10,294 nucleotides of DNA from Gemmatimonadota bacterium (lineage in GTDB: Bacteria > Gemmatimonadota > Gemmatimonadetes > Palauibacterales > Palauibacteraceae). The notes beneath the pieces are model-generated. The model ran no database searches, had not been told where the DNA came from, and saw nothing but the letters and a program-made list of their open reading frames with translations. This document shows, one piece after another, positions 1 to 10,294 of the stretch (position 1 is the first letter of the stretch; the number at the start of each line of letters is the position of its first letter). The stretch spans positions 1-10,294 of the forward strand of contig JBDHAC010000085.1 in NCBI GenBank assembly GCA_039588275.1, written 5' to 3'. The position numbers were made by a program, and so were the translations under genes.

Positions 1-752
1 TCGCCACCGGTATTGCCGCCGCCGTTGCTGCCGTCGCCCGCGCCATCACCTCCGGTACCACCGCTCGACCCGCCGTCGTCCGAGCCACTGCTGCCCGTGT
101 CACCGCCCGAATCGCCGCCCGAACCGCTGTCATCGGAGCCACTGCTCCCATCATCGACGTCGCCGCCGCCCGGCAACTCGGGATCATCCCCAGCCGGGAG
201 CACCACGTCGGGCTCATCGCCGTCAGCCCCGAACAGGAACGCCGCAGCCGGAAGAGCGACGATGAAGTACGCGGCGACCGGTCGGCCACAGCGTGGACGG
301 TCTTCCTCGCTCAGACCGCGGGCGGGATCCATCCACTCGACCTCGTCTTCACACGATCGGTTCCCTGGATCCGCGACCCCGCCAGCGGACGCTCCAACCG
401 TGGGGCCGCCCGATCCGGAATCCGCAGCGTCGAGCCAGGTATCCGTGATGTCGACGCACCCGGCACCGGTCGCAGGATCGCACGTCATCCCCTGATCGTT
501 GGCATACACACGGAGCCGCTCACGGGCCACGGCCGCCACCTCGGGTGACAGATCAGTCGACTGCGTCGCGTTCGGAACGTAGAAGAAAAGCCGCTCGCCT
601 TCAGCGTGGACCTGGACGCTGGCGCACGAGACCATCCAACCACCGCACTCCTGCGCCTGGGCGACCACCGGGGTCGGAGGCGTCAGGAGTAGCGCGAGTC
701 CGCCGGCGAGGCCCCATATGGAGAGCCCGCGTGCACGATTTGACATCGACAT
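1..752 (-). CDS. Secreted protein with Gly/Asp/Ser-rich linker, possible PEP-CTERM-type sorting substrate (3' end outside window)
   Basis: Manual minus-strand translation is open from ATG 752 (alternative 746) to the window edge, with AAGGAG at 770-765. It reads MSMSNRARGLSIWGLAGGLALLLTPPTPVVAQAQECGGWMVSCASVQVH..., i.e. a signal peptide, six Cys, then GGGDVDDGSSGSDDSGSGGDSGGDTG... The PEP-CTERM call is inference because the C-terminus is not visible. Confidence 0.8.
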   Translation of the reverse strand, partial: MSMSNRARGLSIWGLAGGLALLLTPPTPVVAQAQECGGWMVSCASVQVHAEGERLFFYVPNATQSTDLSPEVAAVARERLRVYANDQGMTCDPATGAGCVDITDTWLDAADSGSGGPTVGASAGGVADPGNRSCEDEVEWMDPARGLSEEDRPRCGRPVAAYFIVALPAAAFLFGADGDEPDVVLPAGDDPELPGGGDVDDGSSGSDDSGSGGDSGGDTGSSGSDDGGSSGGTGGDGAGDGSNGGGNTGG

Positions 753-887
753 GCTAATCGGTGACTCCTTGCGGCGTGGAGCCGACAATGTGCGACTCCA
801 AAACCCATGCTCAACAATCGCTGCGCGCCGGGCGCAGTCGTCCGACGCATTTCGTTGCAAGTACGGGGCTCGGTCGAGTATCGGACG

Positions 888-913
888 TAACCGACTTCAT
901 ATCAACGTTTTAC
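888..913. promoter_or_regulatory. IHF-like binding site
   Basis: TATCAACGTTTTA (900-912) matches the E. coli IHF consensus WATCAANNNNTTR exactly and lies in the intergenic region upstream of the 752 gene. Confidence 0.5.
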
Positions 914-972
914 ACGATGGGCGGCGGGGTGCGCCGGACGGACGTGTGGGGGGCATCCAACACTTCGCGCGT

Positions 973-1335
973 TTAGCGGATGGTGATCACGGAATGGTCG
1001 AGATTGTCGGTGATCGTCCACACCACCGTGTCGCCCGGTTGAACGAGCACTTCGTCCGAAACATACGAGCGCGGTGACCCGATCGGCATCGCGAGAAAAG
1101 CCACGTTGCCGCTCGAGAACGCCAGGCGCGGAAGCCGGAAGGACTCGGTGTTGCTGGTGGTGACCACCCCCAGCGACACGCGCTGCCCGCTGACGATCAC
1201 GTAGACGTGCACGTCGAGCGGATTGTAGTTGCTGACCTCGACGGTCGATGGTGGTTCGGACGTATCCGACGCCGGCGCCGAGGCACACGCCGACAGCCCG
1301 CCGACAGCCAGGAGCACGTACGCGATTCGTCTCAT
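973..1335 (-). CDS. Small beta-rich lipoprotein, 120 aa, function unknown
   Basis: GAGGAGG precedes ATG 1335. MRRIAYVLLAVGGLSAC is a lipoprotein signal with lipobox LSAC, followed by a beta-strand-rich mature domain. Confidence 0.85.
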   Translation of the reverse strand: MRRIAYVLLAVGGLSACASAPASDTSEPPSTVEVSNYNPLDVHVYVIVSGQRVSLGVVTTSNTESFRLPRLAFSSGNVAFLAMPIGSPRSYVSDEVLVQPGDTVVWTITDNLDHSVITIR

Positions 1336-1483
1336 TACATGCCCCTCCTCGCGGTAGCGGCGTCTTCTTCCCCGGTCGTGCTGCGCCAACCCGGTTTCGT
1401 TATCGGTCTTGATACTCCGATGACCTTCCCCCGGATCATCGGACATGACCCGACTCGATGGCAATGGGGGACTGGCGCGCACC

Positions 1484-2536
1484 ATGGGTACGGCTCCATG
1501 CCGCGAAACCGGCGCCGCCCTCCCCTATACACTCTTCACGCTCGTGCTACTGTCCCTGGCGGCGACGGGAGGATTCGTCCTGGCCTGGGCGGAGCTCCGT
1601 TCCAGCCAGGCGTTCGGAGCGGGCGTCGTCGCCTTCTATGTGAGCGATGGAGGATGGCAGCAGGCGCTGGCCGGCGGCGCCGGGCGTCCTCCACCCACAC
1701 AATCGCTCGCGATCGGGGTCGGGCGAGCCCGGGTCACCTCCACGAGGATTCTGACGCTGGGGTATGGGGAGTCCCTCTACCGGATGTCATCGACCGGTAC
1801 CGTCGTCGGACCCCGCGGGGGCGTCTTCGACCGCACCGTCTCCGTCATCGTGTGGGCCGCAGAGCCGCCTCTGTTTCCGGCGGCGATCACGACATCGACG
1901 GGTCTCCTCGCAGACGTCACGAATGGAACGATCTCCGGGCTCGATCACGCCCCGGGTTGCTCTGGCCGGTACGGTGGACCCATCGCTGCGCTGGCCAGTC
2001 CGGCGTCGGCCCCCTTGTCGGTCGGACCGGGGCTGCAGCTTTCCGGTGTCCCGACCATCCGCTCGCTAGGTCCCCTCGTCTCGCTGCGACGGGCGACGGG
2101 CTTGAATTGGGCCGACCTGATCGCGACGTACGGTCTGCCTCGGGATGCCTCGATTCCTCCGGATCCGTGGCCCGCCCCTCCAGCCGCGGGCTCGTCGCAA
2201 TGGCCGGTGATCGACCTCCACACATCCCCGGCCCGATTGGACGCGGTCAACAGCGGCCGCGGTGCGTTGATCGCCCGAGGAGACCTCCAGCTGGACGGTG
2301 GCTTCGGGTGGCGAGGTCTGATTCTGGTCGGGGGCGCTCTTCGGGTTCGCGGGGACGTTCGACTCGAAGGCGCGGTCGTGGCAGGCCTGGACAGCACGGC
2401 CGCCTCGACGCCTGCAATCGATCTGGGCGGCGGACGGGTAGACATCCGGTTCGACTCCTGCGCGGCGGAAGCGGCCGCCCGCGCCATCGCTACTCGGCCG
2501 GCTGCCCAGCCTGGCACGTGGCGCGAGGAGATGTGA
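1484..2536 (+). CDS. PilX-like minor pilin / type IV pilus assembly protein
   Basis: RETG|AALPYTLFTLVLLSLAA resembles a class III prepilin signal lacking Glu+5, as in PilX/GspK. It is followed by AFYVSDGG and C-terminal beta-solenoid-like repeats (GALIARGDL, GLILVGGAL, GAVVAG). Start is 1484 or 1445. Confidence 0.7.
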   Translation: MGTAPCRETGAALPYTLFTLVLLSLAATGGFVLAWAELRSSQAFGAGVVAFYVSDGGWQQALAGGAGRPPPTQSLAIGVGRARVTSTRILTLGYGESLYRMSSTGTVVGPRGGVFDRTVSVIVWAAEPPLFPAAITTSTGLLADVTNGTISGLDHAPGCSGRYGGPIAALASPASAPLSVGPGLQLSGVPTIRSLGPLVSLRRATGLNWADLIATYGLPRDASIPPDPWPAPPAAGSSQWPVIDLHTSPARLDAVNSGRGALIARGDLQLDGGFGWRGLILVGGALRVRGDVRLEGAVVAGLDSTAASTPAIDLGGGRVDIRFDSCAAEAAARAIATRPAAQPGTWREEM

Positions 2537-3274
2537 TCAGTCCAGCTCGCGGAGCAGGACGGTGAGCAGGTCGTCGGGGTTGTCCACGTGGACCCAATGG
2601 CCCGCGTGGATGCGATGGACGAGCGACCGTCCCCGATGACCGGCTGCTTCCACGCGCGAGCATTCCGCCTCGGGCATGACATCGGATTCTGTCGCCTTCA
2701 CGAAGTGAATCCGTGTGCCCGGCGGTGGGTCTTCCGCCACATCCCACACGTCCGTCCGGAAGAAATCGTACAACAACGCCTCCACGCCATTCAGATCGAA
2801 CCGCCACCGGAAGCGTCTCCCGCGTAGCTCCAGGTTGGTGGCCATCCACCGCGCGACGTACGGGACCACCTGCAAGTCGATGAGCCTCTGTACCGCTTCG
2901 GCTCGGCTGTCGTAGTCCGGGGGGAGTCGACGCAGGATTTGAAGCATCCGATACGCGGCTCCACCTGGAGAGCGGCGCGACGGCGTCGAATCGATCACCC
3001 AGACTTGAGCCGGTGAGAGCAGCCCCGCACCCATCAGGGCCACCTTGCCGCCGAACGAGTGCCCCAGGACCGCGTCGGCGGGCCGGCCCAAAGCCTCGGC
3101 CAGCTCGTATACATCGTGGGCGCACGCGTGCAGCGTGTGAGGGGGCGCGAAACCCTGGGAGTGACCGTGCAAACGCAGATCGACGAGGATCACGCCCCAT
3201 TCGGGTCGGCTCGCGACGATCGAGCGGGCTACAGATCCCCAGTTGCGGCCCGCGCCGTAGATCCCATGCACCAC
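2537..3274 (-). CDS. Alpha/beta fold hydrolase (YbfF/ABHD11-like esterase); true 5' end uncertain
   Basis: HGIYGAGRNW, DLRLHGHS, nucleophile elbow GHSFGG and AGHWVHVDNP motifs. The frame stays open upstream to a TGA at 3394-3392 with no ATG/GTG/TTG. Confidence 0.9.
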   Translation of the reverse strand: MVHGIYGAGRNWGSVARSIVASRPEWGVILVDLRLHGHSQGFAPPHTLHACAHDVYELAEALGRPADAVLGHSFGGKVALMGAGLLSPAQVWVIDSTPSRRSPGGAAYRMLQILRRLPPDYDSRAEAVQRLIDLQVVPYVARWMATNLELRGRRFRWRFDLNGVEALLYDFFRTDVWDVAEDPPPGTRIHFVKATESDVMPEAECSRVEAAGHRGRSLVHRIHAGHWVHVDNPDDLLTVLLRELD

Positions 3275-3444
3275 ATAGAGACACCGGGATGAGCGACCCG
3301 AATCGATCTTCAGATGGTGTAGGAGCTCGGCGCTCTTGCGGACTCGCGTGGTGATAATCTGGATCGGCCCTATCTTGAGTCGCTCTTTTGCTCACGGCGG
3401 CTTCGCCTCGATAGCGGCTCTGACCGCGGGGCGGAAAAAAGGTA

Positions 3445-3457
3445 CGTCGAATGCCAT
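3445..3457 (+). repeat. Left att core CGTCGAATGCCAT
   Basis: Identical to 5519-5531. Confidence 0.8.
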
Positions 3458-3526
3458 GCGCTGGCACCTTTCGACGCGGGGTAAGTTCCTGTCAGGTATC
3501 CGTTTCGCTTTCCCCGCATACCCCGC

Positions 3527-4105
3527 TCATCCGCCTGATTGTGCCGCTTTTTTGCCGTGAATCGGCTGGACCTGCCGCGTTCGTGGCTCGTCCCCGTGAT
3601 AGCGGGCCAGCTTTTCGACGGCTTCTTCAAGCCTGACGGAATCCACGATCGAGTATCGGTCGTAGATGCTCTCCGTCTTGTGGCCCGTGAGGTCCATCGC
3701 GTCGGAACGGCTACCGCCCGCGCGCTCGAGGTTCCGCACGGCAGTCCGTCGCAGATCGTGAAACCATGCGCCCGCGAGTCCCGCCCGCTCGGTCGCACCG
3801 AGCCAGGCGGTGTAGGACGACCGGATCGGCTCCCCGCCCCGATGGAACACGTAGGGGCAGATCATGTCCCGTTCGCGTTCCACGCGATTGGTGCGGGTGC
3901 GTTGCTCGGTGAGTAGGTCCTCGAGTTCGGGTAACTTCCAGAACGGAAGCTCGCGTCCGCGTCCGTTCTTCGATCGGCTGCCCTCAAGCCGGACCCAGCC
4001 CGCTTCGAGGTCCACCGACGCCCAACGCAGCCCGACGGTTTCCTGCTTCCGCCAGCCGGTGAGGGCCGCGAACCGGACCACGGGCGCGAGGTCGGCTCCG
4101 ATCTC
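3527..4105 (-). pseudogene. Tyrosine recombinase/phage integrase, catalytic domain only (N-terminally truncated)
   Basis: Motifs TGWR, SKNG, HDLRR, GHKT and YDRY give an intact R-K-H-R-H-Y set. Integrase-like sequence starts near EIGADLAPVV (~4105) with no core-binding or arm-binding domain. A possible GTG start lies at 4081. Confidence 0.85.
3536..3557. repeat. Tandem arm-type-like site 1 (TGATTGTGCCG-CTTT-TTTGCCG)
   Basis: TGATTGTGCCG is identical to 5387-5397. The TGCCG units repeat at an 11-bp period and overlap the last integrase codons. Confidence 0.65.
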
Positions 4106-4169
4106 CCCGGCCCTCCCTTGACTGTCGCCTAACGGCCCCAGATCCTCGGGGCAGGAGGGGAAGCACCCA

Positions 4170-4274
4170 ATGAAGCGGACTCTATTCGCGATCATTGCCC
4201 TGGTTATCGGAGTGATTGTGGTCGAGCTGGTATTTGGGTACTGCTTCACGAGTGCTATCGGGCCTCCCGGATAG
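4170..4274 (+). CDS. 34-aa single-transmembrane peptide
   Basis: AGGAGG at 4153-4158, ATG 4170, MKRTLFAIIALVIGVIVVELVFGYCFTSAIGPPG, TAG 4272-4274. It is below the ORF-track cutoff. Confidence 0.6.
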   Translation: MKRTLFAIIALVIGVIVVELVFGYCFTSAIGPPG

Positions 4275-4300
4275 CGTGGTGGCGTAGCCGCTTTTGGCCG

Positions 4301-4699
4301 TCATGCGGCTCGCACCCGTTTGAGCTTCTTGAGCTGCGCCTCAAGCTCGCGTATCCGGTCGGTCAGCTCGCCCACGTCGAAGGCCCGCAGGAACGCCTCG
4401 ACGGCCCGCACCGCCACCTGCCCGTCTCGGTTCGGGAGCCGTCCCGCCGCCACCGCCTGCCCGATCAGCTCCAGCCACCTACGGGCGTCCTCTGGGTTCT
4501 TGAGCGGCCCCAGCTCGTCGGGCTCGAGGCCCGCTCGCTTGTATCGCTCGGCTGTCGCCTGAGCGCCCTTCCTGCCTAGCTCCGCCATGCGCTCCCGGCC
4601 CTCGGGGGCGTGGGCAGGGCATAGGCCCGTGGTGGCGTCTACGAGGTGGTCAGGGGCCCGACAGGGCTCCCCGGCTTTGTTCCTGGCCTTAAACGGCAC
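4301..4699 (-). CDS. Phage/satellite-type hypothetical protein with DUF5763/HGGxSTG-like Cys-His N-terminus and coiled-coil C-terminus
   Basis: Strong AGGAGG 8 nt before GTG 4699. Motifs KARNKAGEPC...LCPAH, LGRKGAQAT and ELTDRIRELEAQL. Family assignment is from motif recall, not a search. Confidence 0.75.
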   Translation of the reverse strand: MPFKARNKAGEPCRAPDHLVDATTGLCPAHAPEGRERMAELGRKGAQATAERYKRAGLEPDELGPLKNPEDARRWLELIGQAVAAGRLPNRDGQVAVRAVEAFLRAFDVGELTDRIRELEAQLKKLKRVRAA

Positions 4700-4763
4700 G
4701 GCTTAGTCCTCCTCTACGTTTGGGGTGCGATGGGCGTGTGCGGTGCGAATCCATGTCCACGGG

Positions 4764-4783
4764 CGGCACAATCGCGGCACACC
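4764..4783 (+). repeat. Inverted repeat left / tandem arm-type-like site 2 (CGGCACAATCGCGGCACACC)
   Basis: 19/20 identical to the reverse complement of 5378-5397. Confidence 0.8.
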
Positions 4784-4954
4784 CGCAACGGAAGCGCTTG
4801 CGATAGGGGGGTTACGCGGGCGTATAGGACCAGTAACGCCATGCGTCCACCCGGAACCGACGCGATACAGCGCGCGCGGGAACCCATGGAGGGGTGCAGC
4901 GGGCGGGGCAGGAGGGGCTGTCTCACGCCTGCCGGTTGGGGAGAAACGGACCGA

Positions 4955-4980
4955 TAACTCCAATAATATCATTAGCTTAC
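4955..4980. promoter_or_regulatory. IHF-like site in AT-rich patch
   Basis: TATCATTAGCTTA has one mismatch to WATCAANNNNTTR and shares the TAAC-N7-ATATCA-N5-TTAC frame with 888-913. Confidence 0.45.
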
Positions 4981-5119
4981 GTACCTGGGGGGGTTGCGCG
5001 CGTCCGCGTGTACGTCGCATTCTGCGATCACGAGTCCTCACGACTTTCTTTTCTCGGGCCGAGCGCCGCCGGAGGCGCTCGGCAAGCACCCACCGTCCAG
5101 GCGGCAGGAGGTGACGACC

Positions 5120-5359
5120 GTGCCGAAGTTCATCGATACCCATCCCATGAAGCCGTTCACGGCGGACGCCCTGAACGAGTTGCAGAACGCGCCGCCGGAC
5201 GAGTTCGGCGTCACGCACCACGACATCCTGTTCAGCGAGGAGGACGACCAGATCTATTGCGTTCTGGACGCCCCGAACGCCGAAGCGGTCCACAAGCATC
5301 ATGCGAAGGCCGGCCTCACGTGTGAATTCGTCCGCGAAGTGAAGTCGACGCGCGGGTGA
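5120..5359 (+). CDS. DUF4242 / SCO4226-like small metal(nickel)-binding family protein, 79 aa
   Basis: AGGAGG 5106-5111, 8 nt before GTG 5120. MPKFIDTH...GVTHH...IYCVLDAPNAEAVHKHHAKAGL...VREV matches the family pattern. Confidence 0.85.
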   Translation: MPKFIDTHPMKPFTADALNELQNAPPDEFGVTHHDILFSEEDDQIYCVLDAPNAEAVHKHHAKAGLTCEFVREVKSTRG

Positions 5360-5377
5360 GGGAAGCCCTTGGCCGCC

Positions 5378-5397
5378 GGTGTGCCGTGATTGTGCCG
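5378..5397 (-). repeat. Inverted repeat right / tandem arm-type-like site 3 (GGTGTGCCGTGATTGTGCCG)
   Basis: Reverse complement is CGGCACAATCACGGCACACC; it lies 121 bp inside the right att core. Confidence 0.8.
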
Positions 5398-5518
5398 TAA
5401 CGGTGACACGCTGAGCGTATCTGAACGGTAAACGCCCTCCAGCCCGATTGGGCGAAAAGCCCCGCACCGTGTAGCTTGGTCCGGTTCTGTACCTATCTGG
5501 ATCACCTACCTCGTGGGG

Positions 5519-5531
5519 CGTCGAATGCCAT
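5519..5531 (+). repeat. Right att core CGTCGAATGCCAT
   Basis: Identical to 3445-3457; includes ATG 5525-5527. Confidence 0.8.
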
Positions 5532-6529
5532 CAGGGGTCGATTCCAGCTCGTCGGCGTTCGAGCCCTACCCGGGGCTGCGGAACCCGCATGCGCAGACGC
5601 TCACGGCAAGGCTGCTTCGCGCTCGCTTCCGAACTCGGTACGCGCGAACGCGAATCGCGACGCCCGATGGCGACTTCCTCGACCTCGACGTGGCCGGCCG
5701 ACCGGACCCGGGCAGTCCGGTGTGTCTCATCCTGCATGGCCTCGAAGGCTCCTCCAGGTCCGGGTACGTGCTCTCCGCTTCCCGGGCACTACAGACGATC
5801 GGGATCTCGTGCGTCGCGATGAACTTCCGGTCCTGCAGCGGCGAGCCCAACGAGAGGCCCCAGTCGTATCATGCCGGGAAGACCGATGACATCGAGCTGG
5901 TGCTCGATTGGCTGACCCGGCGCTTCCCACACGCGCGAAGAGGAGTGCTGGGGTTCTCCCTGGGCGGCAACGCGCTGCTCAAGTACCTGGGCGAGGCGGG
6001 CGAAGCGGCGTCTGCCCAGGTCGACGGCGCGGTCACGATCTCCGTCCCGTTCGACCTGGCCTCGTCGGCGCAGACCCTCGAGAACGGGGTGGGTCGGGTC
6101 TATGCAAGTCATTTCCTGCGCTCGATGCGTCGCAAGGTGCGGGAGAAGGCCAAGCGATTCCCGGACGCATTCGATTTGAACGCCGTCGGGCGAGCCCGGA
6201 CGCTGCGGGCGTTCGACGAGGTCGTGACGGCCCCCATCCATGGGTTCTCTACGGCGGGGGACTACTACGGTGCGTGTAGCTCGCAGCGCTATCTGGATGC
6301 CATCCGAGTGCCCACGACCGTGATTCACTCGCGCGACGATCCGCTCGTGCCCGAGAACACCATCCCGTGGACTACGTTCGATCGGAACGGGACGATCCGT
6401 GCCGTGATCACCGAAAAGGGCGGACACGTCGGCTTCATCACCCGCAGTGCCGGCCCGGCGCCGCATCTTTGGGCCGAGGCCGAGGCCGCGCGCCGATTGC
6501 AGGGGCACATCGCACAACGGGGAACCTGA
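5525..6529 (+). CDS. yheT: YheT-family alpha/beta hydrolase
   Basis: NPHAQT, TPDGDFLDLD, HGLEGSS, NFRSCSGEPN, GFSLGGN, SRDDP and GGHVGF motifs give a Ser-Asp-His triad. Confidence 0.9.
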   Translation: MPSGVDSSSSAFEPYPGLRNPHAQTLTARLLRARFRTRYARTRIATPDGDFLDLDVAGRPDPGSPVCLILHGLEGSSRSGYVLSASRALQTIGISCVAMNFRSCSGEPNERPQSYHAGKTDDIELVLDWLTRRFPHARRGVLGFSLGGNALLKYLGEAGEAASAQVDGAVTISVPFDLASSAQTLENGVGRVYASHFLRSMRRKVREKAKRFPDAFDLNAVGRARTLRAFDEVVTAPIHGFSTAGDYYGACSSQRYLDAIRVPTTVIHSRDDPLVPENTIPWTTFDRNGTIRAVITEKGGHVGFITRSAGPAPHLWAEAEAARRLQGHIAQRGT

Positions 6530-6598
6530 GGTGTAGCAGTTCGCCGCACACACACCGACTTGGGTATGACCTCGCATCGGGAGACCGGAGGAATCGCA

Positions 6599-7060
6599 GT
6601 GAGCTTGGACGTCAAGCCGCGGGGAAGCCGAAAAGCCACGATCCGGTGCCCATTCTGCCTGACGCTGAACCGCGTAAATGTGGGGAGAGCCGCTGATCGG
6701 CCGAAGTGCGGCGATTGCTCCCGACCCTTGCTGCTCGACCGCCCCGTCAAGGTGACCGATGAGGACTTTGATCGGCTGATCGGTGAGGCCGAGGTTCCCG
6801 TCGTAGTCGATTTTCACGCCGACTGGTGTGGGCCGTGCAAGGTCATGGCCCCCGCACTGGACGACCTCGCGCGTGTGAAGTCGGGCGATCTCATCCTCGC
6901 AAAGCTCGACACCGATGCAAACCCGCAAACCGCGCAGCGCTTCGGGATTCGCGGCATCCCGACCTTGATCCTGTTTGATGGCGGTGAGGAATCGAAACGG
7001 ATCAGTGGAGCCGTCCCTTACGATCAGCTGCTCGCATTCGTGGAGGAGCGCGAAGGCTGA
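6599..7060 (+). CDS. trxC: Thioredoxin 2 (zinc-finger thioredoxin)
   Basis: GGAGG 7 nt before GTG 6599; N-terminal CPFC...NRV...CGDC zinc finger, WCGPC active site and GIPT cis-Pro loop. Confidence 0.92.
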   Translation: MSLDVKPRGSRKATIRCPFCLTLNRVNVGRAADRPKCGDCSRPLLLDRPVKVTDEDFDRLIGEAEVPVVVDFHADWCGPCKVMAPALDDLARVKSGDLILAKLDTDANPQTAQRFGIRGIPTLILFDGGEESKRISGAVPYDQLLAFVEEREG

Positions 7061-7193
7061 ACGGCCCACGACGGGCCCCCGAAGCCAACCCCGGCCGCGC
7101 CCCGAACGTCTCAATGCCGTACGCAAGCCAAGCACCGGATCGAGGATTCGCGCTCGGACACCGGCGTACATAGCCCGCCCGTTAAGGAGAACG

Positions 7194-8327
7194 ATGGAAG
7201 CGATATTCAGACAACTGACCGTCACCGGCGCGATCGCTTTGGTACTGACGAGTGCTCCGGCTTGTGTCACAGCGAGCGTGTCGGGCAACCCCGCGTCCGA
7301 TCCGCTAGCTCGCGGCGCAGTCGAGCGTCCGGCGGACGGGCCCTACGTGTACGTCGCGAACCAGGGGGCGGCTACCGTCACGGTCATCGACGCAGGCGAC
7401 GGGTCAATCGTGGCGGTGATCCGTCTCGAAGAGCTCGGGTTCGGACCCAACGCGCGACCACACCACGTGGCGGTAGAGCCCGACGGATCCTTCTGGTACG
7501 TGTCGCTGATCGGCGAGAACCGCGTTCTCAAGTTCGATCGAGACAACCGGCTCGTGAGCTCACTCGAGTTCGAGCGACCGGGGATGCTGGCGGTTCATCC
7601 CACGGAGGACCTGCTGGTCGTCGGACGCTCCATGGCTGCCGTGAACCCGCCCCAACGAATCGGAATGGTGCGGCGCTCGACGATGGAGGTGGAGGAGATC
7701 GACGTCTTCGTTCCGCGCCCGCACTCGATGGCGGTGAGCTCGGATGGACGCTGGGTGTTCACCTCGAGCCTGGCCGAGAACACCATCGTCGCAGTCGATA
7801 TCGAGAGCGGCGAGGCCGAGTTGACGAGGCTCGGCGGCGAGGAGCCACACGTCTTCGTTCAGTTCGCCCTGTCTCCCGATGGGAGTACGCTGGTCGCGAC
7901 CGCGCAGATATCGGGGAAGCTCCTGGTGTTCGACGTGAGCGACGCACCCGAGGTTCGGCTGGTGCGCGAGATCGAGGTGAATCCGGAGCCGTGGCACCCC
8001 GCCTATTCTCCGGACGGCCGGTTCGTGTATTTCGGGAACCTCGGTGCCAACACGGTTACGGTGGTGGACGCGGAGAGCTGGTCGGTGGCGAGAGTGATCT
8101 CGGGCGAAGGGCTCTCGGAGCCTCACGGGATCGCGCTCACGCCGGACGGCGGACGGCTATTCGTGTCCAACCGCAACGTGAAGGGGGCTTACGAGGCCAC
8201 CGAGGCGCTCGGTTTCGATGAGCCAAACGGCACGATCGCCGTCATCGACCCGGCAACCGGGCGGATCCTGAACATCATCGAGGTCGCCCCCTACGCCGCG
8301 GGTCTCGGGGTAGCTGCGCCGCGGTGA
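7194..8327 (+). CDS. YncE/YVTN-family beta-propeller, exported (possible lipoprotein)
   Basis: AAGGAG before ATG 7194; hydrophobic signal ending SAPAC; repeats such as YVYVANQGAATVTVID, SPDGRFVY and PHGIALTPDGGRLFVSN. Confidence 0.88.
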   Translation: MEAIFRQLTVTGAIALVLTSAPACVTASVSGNPASDPLARGAVERPADGPYVYVANQGAATVTVIDAGDGSIVAVIRLEELGFGPNARPHHVAVEPDGSFWYVSLIGENRVLKFDRDNRLVSSLEFERPGMLAVHPTEDLLVVGRSMAAVNPPQRIGMVRRSTMEVEEIDVFVPRPHSMAVSSDGRWVFTSSLAENTIVAVDIESGEAELTRLGGEEPHVFVQFALSPDGSTLVATAQISGKLLVFDVSDAPEVRLVREIEVNPEPWHPAYSPDGRFVYFGNLGANTVTVVDAESWSVARVISGEGLSEPHGIALTPDGGRLFVSNRNVKGAYEATEALGFDEPNGTIAVIDPATGRILNIIEVAPYAAGLGVAAPR

Positions 8328-10183
8328 GGAGCCCCTCGGCACCCATCCGCGCCGCGGCCCTCTTCGGCCTGTCGTGGCTCGGCGCCGCGTGCGCCCCCGC
8401 CTCCCAAAGGGCATCCGCCACCCCCGGAGCGGCGGACGACGTGGAGGGCGGCTTCCGTCGCCGCGTGCACGCGATCCCGGTCGTAGACGATGCCGGCAGC
8501 GCCTACGCACTCCCCTTCCTGGGAGGCTTCAACGTCCCCCGACCGCAGTGGGTCGACATCGACGCGGATGGAGATCTCGACGTCTTCATCCAGGAGACCA
8601 CGAATCGGCTCCTTTTCTTCGAGCATACGGGAACCCCGACCGAGCCGCGCTTGACCTGGCGACCGAACCGGTTTCGAGATCTACAGGTAGGTGAGTGGTA
8701 CAGGTTCGTGGATGTGGATCGGGATGGCGATCCGGACCTGCTCGCGGAGGAGCCGTTCAGCTACATGCGCCTGTATCGCAACGTGGGGTCCCCCGCCCGC
8801 CCGGAGTTCGTTCTCGCCGCCGACACGCTACGCGACAGCTCCGGCGACGCCATCTTCTCGGACCGGCAGAACATCCCCAACGCCGCGGACATCGACTGCG
8901 ATGAGTTGCTGGATTTGTTCATCGGTCGGCTCGTCGGCACGGTGACGCGCTACGAGGCCACGGGCGAGATCGGGGAGGACGTGTCGCCGTTCCGTCACGT
9001 GACCGACGACTTCGAGGACATCGAGATCGTCGCCACTTTCGGCTCCCTGCACGGGGCGAACACGATGGCCCTGGCGGATGTGGACGCGGATGGCGACGTG
9101 GACATGTTCTGGGGGGACTTCTTCGAGGCGGGGCTCCTGTTCATCGAGAACACCGGGACCTGCGGCGCCCCCAACCTGCGCACCGCACCGCTCCCCTTCC
9201 CCCTCGATGATCCGATCCGAACCAGCGGCTACAACGCGCCCACATTCGGCGATGCCGATGGGGATGGCGATCTCGACCTCCTGATGGGCGTGCTGGGTGG
9301 CGCGTACAACGCGAACCGCACGACCGCGGATAACCTCCTTCATCTCGAGCAGGCCGACGGCGGTTTCGAGCTCCGTAGCTCGCGCTACATCTCGCAAATC
9401 GATGTGGGGAGCGAGAGCTATCCGGCCTTCCTGGATCTCGACGGTGACCGAGATCTCGACCTGCTGCTCGCGAACAAGATCGATCCGGACGACCTGAACA
9501 CTTCGGTGGTGTATCGATTCGAAAACGTGGGCGATCCCGCGCGGCCGTCGCTCCGGCTCCGCGGCCCGTTCGATATCGGAGGCGCATACCACAACGCGCC
9601 GGCATTCGGTGACCTGGACGCCGACGGGGACCTGGACCTGGTCCTCGGCACGTGGCGCAAGCACCTGGAATACCTCCGCAACGACGGGACGGCGGCCGAG
9701 CCCCGCTTCGTCCGGGCCGATTCGGCCATCGTCGTCCTCACGCGCGGGAGCAACTCCACGCCCGCTCTCGTGGACATCGACGCCGATGGCGACCTGGACC
9801 TGTTCGTGGGCGAGTCCTCAGGTACGCTCAACTTCTATCGAAACGAGGGTAGCGCCGCGGCCCCGCGGTTCGAGCTCGTCAGCGACGAGTACCTCGACAT
9901 CGATGTAGGACGCCGAAGCGTACCCGCGTTCCTGGATATCGAGGGGGACGGAGATCAGGACCTCGTGCTGGGATCGGAAATCGGGGGGCTGTTGTTCTAC
10001 AGAAACGATGGGAGGCCCGCAGAGGCTCGATTCGTGGAGGCCGAGTCGCCGTTCCCGGGTGCCGAAGACCTGCCGACCTTCGCCGTGCCCGCCTTCGCGG
10101 ACATCGATGCGGATGGGGACCTTGACCTGTTCGTGGGGGGGAACGGCGGCGGCCTGTACTTCTTCGAGAACGTCGGTCGGTGA
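8324..10183 (+). CDS. FG-GAP/VCBS-like repeat lipoprotein (Ca-binding beta-propeller)
   Basis: GTGA overlap with the upstream stop; signal ending LGAAC; ten DxDxDGDxD-type repeats. Confidence 0.9.
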   Translation: MRSPSAPIRAAALFGLSWLGAACAPASQRASATPGAADDVEGGFRRRVHAIPVVDDAGSAYALPFLGGFNVPRPQWVDIDADGDLDVFIQETTNRLLFFEHTGTPTEPRLTWRPNRFRDLQVGEWYRFVDVDRDGDPDLLAEEPFSYMRLYRNVGSPARPEFVLAADTLRDSSGDAIFSDRQNIPNAADIDCDELLDLFIGRLVGTVTRYEATGEIGEDVSPFRHVTDDFEDIEIVATFGSLHGANTMALADVDADGDVDMFWGDFFEAGLLFIENTGTCGAPNLRTAPLPFPLDDPIRTSGYNAPTFGDADGDGDLDLLMGVLGGAYNANRTTADNLLHLEQADGGFELRSSRYISQIDVGSESYPAFLDLDGDRDLDLLLANKIDPDDLNTSVVYRFENVGDPARPSLRLRGPFDIGGAYHNAPAFGDLDADGDLDLVLGTWRKHLEYLRNDGTAAEPRFVRADSAIVVLTRGSNSTPALVDIDADGDLDLFVGESSGTLNFYRNEGSAAAPRFELVSDEYLDIDVGRRSVPAFLDIEGDGDQDLVLGSEIGGLLFYRNDGRPAEARFVEAESPFPGAEDLPTFAVPAFADIDADGDLDLFVGGNGGGLYFFENVGR

Positions 10184-10277
10184 AAGGCGAAACAACCCCC
10201 GGCCCTCTTCCGAACTCTAATAACGAAATGGAGCCAAGGCTCCGGACGTGGCAAGGACCCATGCAACGAGGTGCAGT

Positions 10278-10294
10278 ATGAGGAGAGCCGTATA
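10278..10294 (+). CDS. Probable start of next gene (MRRAV...), truncated by window edge
   Basis: GAGGT at 10268-10272 precedes ATG 10278; the basic N-terminus is compatible with a signal peptide. Confidence 0.4.

Follow-up and report, generated by a model that had tools for sequence, protein, structure and literature searches.

A probable deletion remnant of a phage-satellite-like element at the yheT start codon, likely locked in place and carrying predicted substitute start signals

What has come to lie between the hydrolase gene yheT and the region upstream of it, and could its removal switch the gene? The window analyzed here is a stretch of DNA of 10,294 nucleotides that constitutes one entire contig of a Gemmatimonadota genome (G000; assembly of 4.1 Mb, 86% complete). 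An earlier interpretation, hereafter the sequence-only reading, proposed that a miniature integrase element had been inserted at the yheT start codon and that its excision would act as an expression switch. We consider it probable that the insert is a deletion remnant of a phage-satellite-like element, likely locked at the yheT start, and that yheT has predicted substitute start signals from the element's right end, attR. The host features and repeat copies that define the locus are the following.

2537..3337, minus strand: YbfF-like alpha/beta hydrolase of the left flank (Pfam Abhydrolase_6; NCBIfam PRK10673 below cut-off)
3338..3444, no strand: native divergent intergenic region, a block conserved in three genomes, with a -10-like TATCTT (3371) and a weak SD, AAGGT (3439)
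3445..3457, plus strand: attL core, comprising a 7-bp overlap (3445-3451) and the right core arm, a split inferred from secA att sites
5519..5531, plus strand: attR core, which holds the yheT ATG at 5525
5525..6529, plus strand: host yheT-family hydrolase, intact, 334 aa (NCBIfam PRK10985 over cut-off)

As the sequence-only reading had described, the 13-mers at 3445-3457 and 5519-5531 are identical and spaced 2074 bp apart, and an A-rich AAGG lies 8 nt ahead of the ATG in the left copy. A search of the window at two or fewer mismatches found no third copy, and the exact 13-mer occurs at no other place in the 4.1-Mb assembly. Taken alone, the repeat is ordinary and within chance expectation: the window holds six exact direct repeats of at least 13 bp, and 99% of 346 G000 windows of equal size hold at least one (median 5). 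Within the element there is also a second exact 13-bp direct repeat (4147-4159 and 4904-4916), one copy of which overlaps the SD of a 34-aa ORF; it may be chance.

The insertion at the yheT start is real because a genome of the same genus, G002, carries the empty site. Its alignment covers window positions 2-3386 and 5519-10283 with a single copy of the core, and its hydrolase start codons are 80 bp apart. The breakpoints of this empty allele coincide with the 13-mers, which was the proposed check in relatives, and the att repeats collapse to one copy, as in elements moved by tyrosine integrases. The right copy does hold the yheT ATG (5525), given that an in-frame stop immediately precedes the same ATG in G001; the position of the start is further borne out by an N-terminus conserved in all three genomes of the genus and by a PRK10985 match that begins near it. 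With the empty allele in G002 and use of the same site in a second genome, G001, site-specific insertion in the yheT translation-initiation region was upheld. No tRNA or structured RNA is present in the window as an alternative target, nor does the window contain a tandem element at the yheT site. In a metagenome scan for further copies of the site, 10 of 10 matches were unrelated genes; the query used gave no related locus in viral_contigs, and a search of genome_contigs returned three loci, G001 itself among them.

In the host flanks, the FG-GAP repeat gene (8324-10183) and the beta-propeller gene (7194-8327) lie outside the element and are syntenic in G001 and G002. The native intergenic region is 34 bp longer in G000 than in either of these genomes, and its conserved block presumably has a promoter role. 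The start codon of the ybfF-like gene (3335-3337, minus strand) is AAG in G000, a reading shared by a contig of run X1, possibly the source sample, and ATG in G001 and G002. Since the ybfF frame is otherwise intact under purifying selection, either another start is used or the gene is weakly translated.

Both same-genus genomes, G001 and G002, have yheT. In G001 the site is occupied: one contig terminates in ybfF, attL, a 375-aa integrase gene and an HTH (repressor) gene, and a second contig opens with a different cargo gene, followed by attR and yheT. We infer that these two ends, on different contigs, belong to one element. Host-gene dS is 0.30-0.51 between G001 and G002 and 0.59-0.83 between G000 and either of them, and integrase dS between G000 and G001 (0.98) is above that of the host genes. 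Because the integrases are more diverged than the hosts, and G001 and G002 are the closer pair, the site appears to have been either occupied on two separate occasions or cleanly vacated on one. Beyond the genus, none of 27 yheT loci has an integrase within 1.5 kb; together with its absence from one of the three genomes within the genus (G002), this argues that the element is not a conserved host device.

Beyond the cores, the element carries doubled motifs whose placement recurs in related elements.

3540..3557, plus strand: arm-type doublet of the left end, two copies of TGTGCCG, at 92 bp from the overlap centre; same end in relatives; putative binding site
4764..4781, minus strand: inverted arm-type doublet in the interior, ahead of the terS-like gene, within a block (4714-4917) common to related elements
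5380..5397, plus strand: arm-type doublet of the right end, its start 142 bp from the overlap centre; equal distance in G001 and G011

In G000 and likewise in G001, the 7-bp overlap has one sequence at both ends, and this sequence differs among G000, G001 and G002. This match within and difference between genomes fits the requirement for 7-bp identity during strand exchange by tyrosine integrases, as given in PMC10111431. The last base of the overlap is the A of the yheT ATG, so crossover would replace the SD and everything upstream of it and leave the reading frame whole. In G000 and G001, the centre is flanked by co-oriented TGTGCCG doublets at distances of 92-94 bp and 142 bp; the corresponding distances in the elements found at secA are 68-69 bp and 142 bp. 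These doublets are presumably integrase arm sites. For HE-PICIs, PMC10111431 places the doublets at 81 and 132 bp. G000, G015 and G086 also have an arm-type doublet, inverted with respect to the att arms, some 65-105 bp ahead of their terS-like gene, and the matching G001 block contains one too (window 4764-4781; L038:70-87; L091:14201; L140:5145); through it, the integrase or a regulator might control packaging genes.

The reading frames of the element are the following.

3527..4106, minus strand: remnant of a tyrosine integrase, reduced to the catalytic C-terminal half and matching the 375-aa G001 protein from about residue 180 onward; frame open
4170..4274, plus strand: 34-aa hydrophobic ORF with a strong SD and no Pfam match; may be cargo or chance
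4301..4699, minus strand: 132-aa protein, likely terminase small subunit; the large-subunit gene is next in relatives and missing here
5120..5359, plus strand: cargo gene for an SCO4226-like (nickel-responsive family) protein, with a strong SD

What remains of the island is the 3' half of an integrase gene, a likely terminase small subunit and one cargo gene. The integrase is not intact: the remnant, 74% identical to the G001 integrase, loses homology at window position 4106 and lacks the N-terminal and core-binding parts, and the complete protein is found in G001. Its catalytic motifs are present, its frame is open and its dN/dS is 0.20, which points to loss by deletion rather than by slow decay. 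Mis-assembly as the source of the truncation is unlikely, as run X1 has contigs that extend across attL and across the truncation point with identities of at least 99%. Probes from relatives for excisionase, repressor, helicase and TerL gave no match in the 86%-complete assembly. When 19 full integrases were compared with it, they gave only the remnant and two weak matches; no cognate helper integrase was found among these assembled contigs, and a helper could be unassembled.

Integrases truncated at the 5' end are common in this family. Among 50 integrase loci, 31 are full, 11 are 5'-truncated, seven are cut by contig ends and one is masked; eight of the 11 truncation breakpoints fall in codons 145-205, in a search biased to C-terminal halves. 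The integrase of G422 is cut within 2 nt of the cut point in the window. A hotspot was considered for this shared point and set aside, as one coincident pair among 11 breakpoints in about 175 codons is expected by chance.

For the 132-aa protein, profile searches gave no family match over cut-off. It is likely TerS, because a terminase large-subunit gene comes next on the same strand in 11 of 20 homologous loci. Many relatives of the element also have the large-subunit gene. A complete satellite-like island of 16.1 kb is present at the secA 3' end in G011 (G011:C15:18604-34748; L090, L101) and encodes an integrase, an HTH protein, an AAA helicase-like protein (AAA_25), MmeI-type restriction-modification and TerS, and an element in G020 holds an HTH_17 excisionase-like gene. 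Smaller units were seen as well: a 2558-bp remnant with both att ends and an MqsR/MqsA pair as cargo occupies the secA 3' end of G422 (L139:4138-6696), and units of 1.1-1.8 kb bounded by tRNA-Leu repeats occur in G002 (L060:456-2258) and G001 (L063:4570-5726; L064:3607-4788), in some of which an integrase 3' half comes with a single cargo gene (YecM in the G002 unit). Near tRNA-Arg, G001 has a copy (L061:1102-1441) of the SCO4226-like cassette of the window (5040-5378), with 89% identity. This identity is above that of the host genes (about 80%), which indicates that cargo moves between elements.

How yheT would be expressed downstream of such a remnant depends on what attR provides. Two candidate signals were located there.

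5472..5477, plus strand: candidate outward -10 box TAGCTT in attR, with a putative promoter role; conserved in the G001 element
5513..5518, plus strand: element-supplied G-rich SD-like stretch directly before the overlap, -5.2 kcal/mol against the anti-SD

The yheT product is 334 aa long in each of the three genomes of the genus, and the gene's dN/dS of 0.15-0.25 (neighbours 0.10-0.24, with FG-GAP rows left out for a wrong frame) indicates purifying selection in both occupied genomes as well, in a measure that is blind to recent silencing; by pair, the values are 0.21 and 0.25 for the G000 comparisons and 0.15 for G001-G002. The reading frame is whole while the element is integrated, and the right end is predicted to offer a substitute promoter and ribosome-binding site. 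Predicted anti-SD pairing is -5.2 kcal/mol in attR (-5.3 in G001) versus -3.9/-4.0 kcal/mol for the native SD, both being weak scores that about one quarter of random ATGs equal, and the attR SD is predicted to lie inside a hairpin. TAGCTT is located 53 nt before the ATG in both yheT elements, and TATCTT 47 nt before it in the empty allele. The TAGCTT hexamer accounts for two of 16 TAnnnT boxes upstream of the 55 tRNA/tmRNA calls of G000 and is found in 0.26% of random 125-nt windows; a box of the general form TAnnnT occurs in 19% of random windows and in two of four right ends from sites other than yheT, and the attR box was picked post hoc. A strict sigma-70 scan was uninformative, detecting an outward promoter neither in attR nor in the native region.

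We propose that a phage-satellite-like element entered the yheT start, in what was likely a tyrosine recombination of the lambda type, by way of an integrase lineage that would have moved there from the secA 3' end. Strand exchange would have taken place over the 7 bp between the SD and the ATG, such that integration exchanged the host 5' signals for the element's own and kept the frame. A later deletion, running from about integrase codon 180 to the end of terS, would then have taken out the control and replication genes. Lacking a helper, the remnant would not excise, and yheT would be expressed from attR.

The original suggestion of an excision switch holds that yheT is off or low while the site is occupied, and that a helper integrase acting in trans excises the element and brings back the native promoter and ribosome-binding site. 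Excision would restore the G002-type allele exactly, both cores and both arm doublets are intact, and the agreement of the two overlaps in each genome may point to earlier rounds of excision and re-integration. The full integrase kept in G001 is also in its favour, as is SpyCIM5, an element with a dead integrase that was excised when integrase was supplied in trans (PMC3430984). Nevertheless, the working excision machinery expected of a gene switch such as SpyCIM1, skin or comK was found nowhere in the 86%-complete assembly, with cognate integrase, excisionase and repressor all missing; attR has predicted like-for-like start signals, among them a -10-like box and an SD no weaker than the native one; yheT is intact under purifying selection; and the distribution of the element, which is missing from one of three genomes of the genus and from the vicinity of all 27 yheT loci outside it, speaks against a device of the host. 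We therefore do not favour an expression switch in G000 and regard this reading as very improbable. Run X1, which consists of contigs at a depth of about 3-4 that leave attR uncovered, lists no excision junction and has no bearing either way. Switching is possible for the G001-type element with its full integrase. In a broader form of the idea, the secA integrase lineage, re-targeted to the 7-bp spacer between SD and ATG, would carry out a reversible exchange of promoter and ribosome-binding site, working in G001-type elements and frozen in G000; we judge it decidedly unlikely, and if it is true, each integration or excision swaps the whole 5' control region of yheT with the protein unchanged.

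Alternatively, the element could be locked and damaging, with yheT severed from its promoter, no working substitute, and the gene silent and not yet decayed. Several observations are compatible with this: the conserved native promoter block is now 2 kb away, an intrinsic terminator just before the right arm of G001 would stop transcription coming from the cargo gene, predicted folding pairs the attR SD, the ybfF start codon of G000 is altered and yheT dN/dS is slightly raised. However, yheT is intact in two element-bearing genomes separated by a dS of about 0.6, and both retain TAGCTT and the G-rich SD in attR, so that we hold silencing to be unlikely. The insert could also be a non-autonomous mobile mini-unit, one of a class of truncated-integrase cassettes with cargo that spread via full integrases and phage packaging in trans. 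Similar two-ended units of 1.1-2.6 kb do recur (in G422 at secA, in G002 and G001 at tRNA-Leu), the G422 integrase is cut 2 nt or less from the same point, and cargo is exchanged between sites. Against this, the G000 remnant groups with the full G001 integrase and not with other truncated ones, which indicates that the truncations arose separately; there is no second copy in G000 and no whole-length match in G001 or G002; and the coincident breakpoints are a pair that chance would provide. Such a mini-unit therefore seems improbable to us. The related idea of an autonomous miniature element was abandoned, given an integrase without N-terminal and core-binding parts and an assembly in which excisionase, repressor and cognate integrase were not found. 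The locked remnant with start signals supplied from attR remains the reading that we prefer.

The closest precedents for such a remnant appear to be SpyCIM5 at mutL and HK022 at torS. SpyCI of Streptococcus pyogenes is a phage-like island at the 5' end of mutL whose intact members switch the gene by excision, and in SpyCIM5 the integrase is deleted, the island is permanently integrated and mutL is rescued by an element-internal promoter (PMC3430984). The likeness is that of an island at the 5' end of a gene with an integrase-deleted member that is fixed, as the G000 remnant would be. The rescue promoter of SpyCIM5, however, is cryptic within the int pseudogene and was shown experimentally, whereas the G000 candidate is predicted and lies in the attR arm; moreover, int of G000 points away from yheT, and yheT is not known to have a switch phenotype. 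HK022 integrates in the short divergent torS-torT intergenic region and supplies an outward promoter (PMC6814406). There too a gene is separated from its native promoter and an outward promoter comes from the element, for which G000 has a candidate, but HK022 is a full prophage with a measured effect, and in G000 the crossover, whose last base is the A of the ATG, exchanges the SD as well.

Among classes of elements, CIMEs are decayed elements, defined from ICEs and IMEs, that have lost integration and transfer functions and have kept attL and attR (PMC5704250). The G000 remnant is likewise decayed, with a truncated integrase and no excisionase, repressor or helicase found, and it retains attL and attR with cores and arm doublets at both ends. 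It differs from CIMEs so described in that its parent was apparently terminase-bearing, satellite- or prophage-like, and half an integrase is kept; the intact relatives show terminase and helicase-like genes. PICI-like tycheposons and their remnants have also been described (bioRxiv 10.1101/2020.12.28.424599). With PICIs, HE-PICIs and tycheposons the window element and its relatives share a tyrosine integrase, a 7-bp core and flanking co-oriented doubled motifs (PMC10111431), an integrase clade that changes target sites, and intact relatives with Int, HTH, excisionase-like, helicase-like, TerS and cargo genes in about 16 kb. In contrast to those systems, the phylum and the motif sequence are different, many relatives have a terminase large-subunit gene, and the G000 copy is without replication and control genes. 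The module of integrase, regulators, excisionase and primase-helicase typical of PICIs is missing from the window and was found in G011 and G020. By this comparison, the window element would work like a CIME or SpyCIM5 and not like an intact satellite or a switch.

Where the integrase came from is the part most worth following. Seven genomes (G013, G020, G011, G422, G006, G005 and G086) have the closest integrases, each at the final codons of secA, and the secA cores consist of a 7-bp spacer and then TGCCA, as do the yheT cores. In a 24-row tree, the yheT pair (support 100/100) falls inside a nine-row clade that contains all seven secA integrases (83/85), with an inner node at 87/93, G011 basal and mostly tRNA-targeting integrases outside; the rows were selected, several are half-length and the outgroup is not on one side of a branch. 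An earlier tree of 27 rows left the order of the secA and yheT integrases unresolved, and G001 C15 was excluded from both trees as too short. A change of target from the secA 3' end to the yheT start is likely, with moderate tree support for this direction. The secA end of G000 itself carries no such element. A reading of the window attL as a relic of a secA tail was set aside as ambiguous, as the shared GGTAAG stretch could be a host-factor site.

With seven close integrases at the secA end and two at the yheT start, this would be a natural case of integrative elements changing address, and one in which an element can occupy a gene start at little cost if replacement signals come along. Neither yheT nor secA was found as a published att site in the literature searched, which included few subscription papers and no supplements; TIGER-type survey tables may include them. 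The G001 element itself holds a copy of the new target beyond the core: 34 bp of the yheT start recur in its attL, reaching 20 bp past the core (L040:2429-2462, L038:1046-1079). Flanking DNA can be captured by imprecise excision while an element adopts a new site, and this copy of downstream flank, which would be useless at a gene start, fits such a capture.
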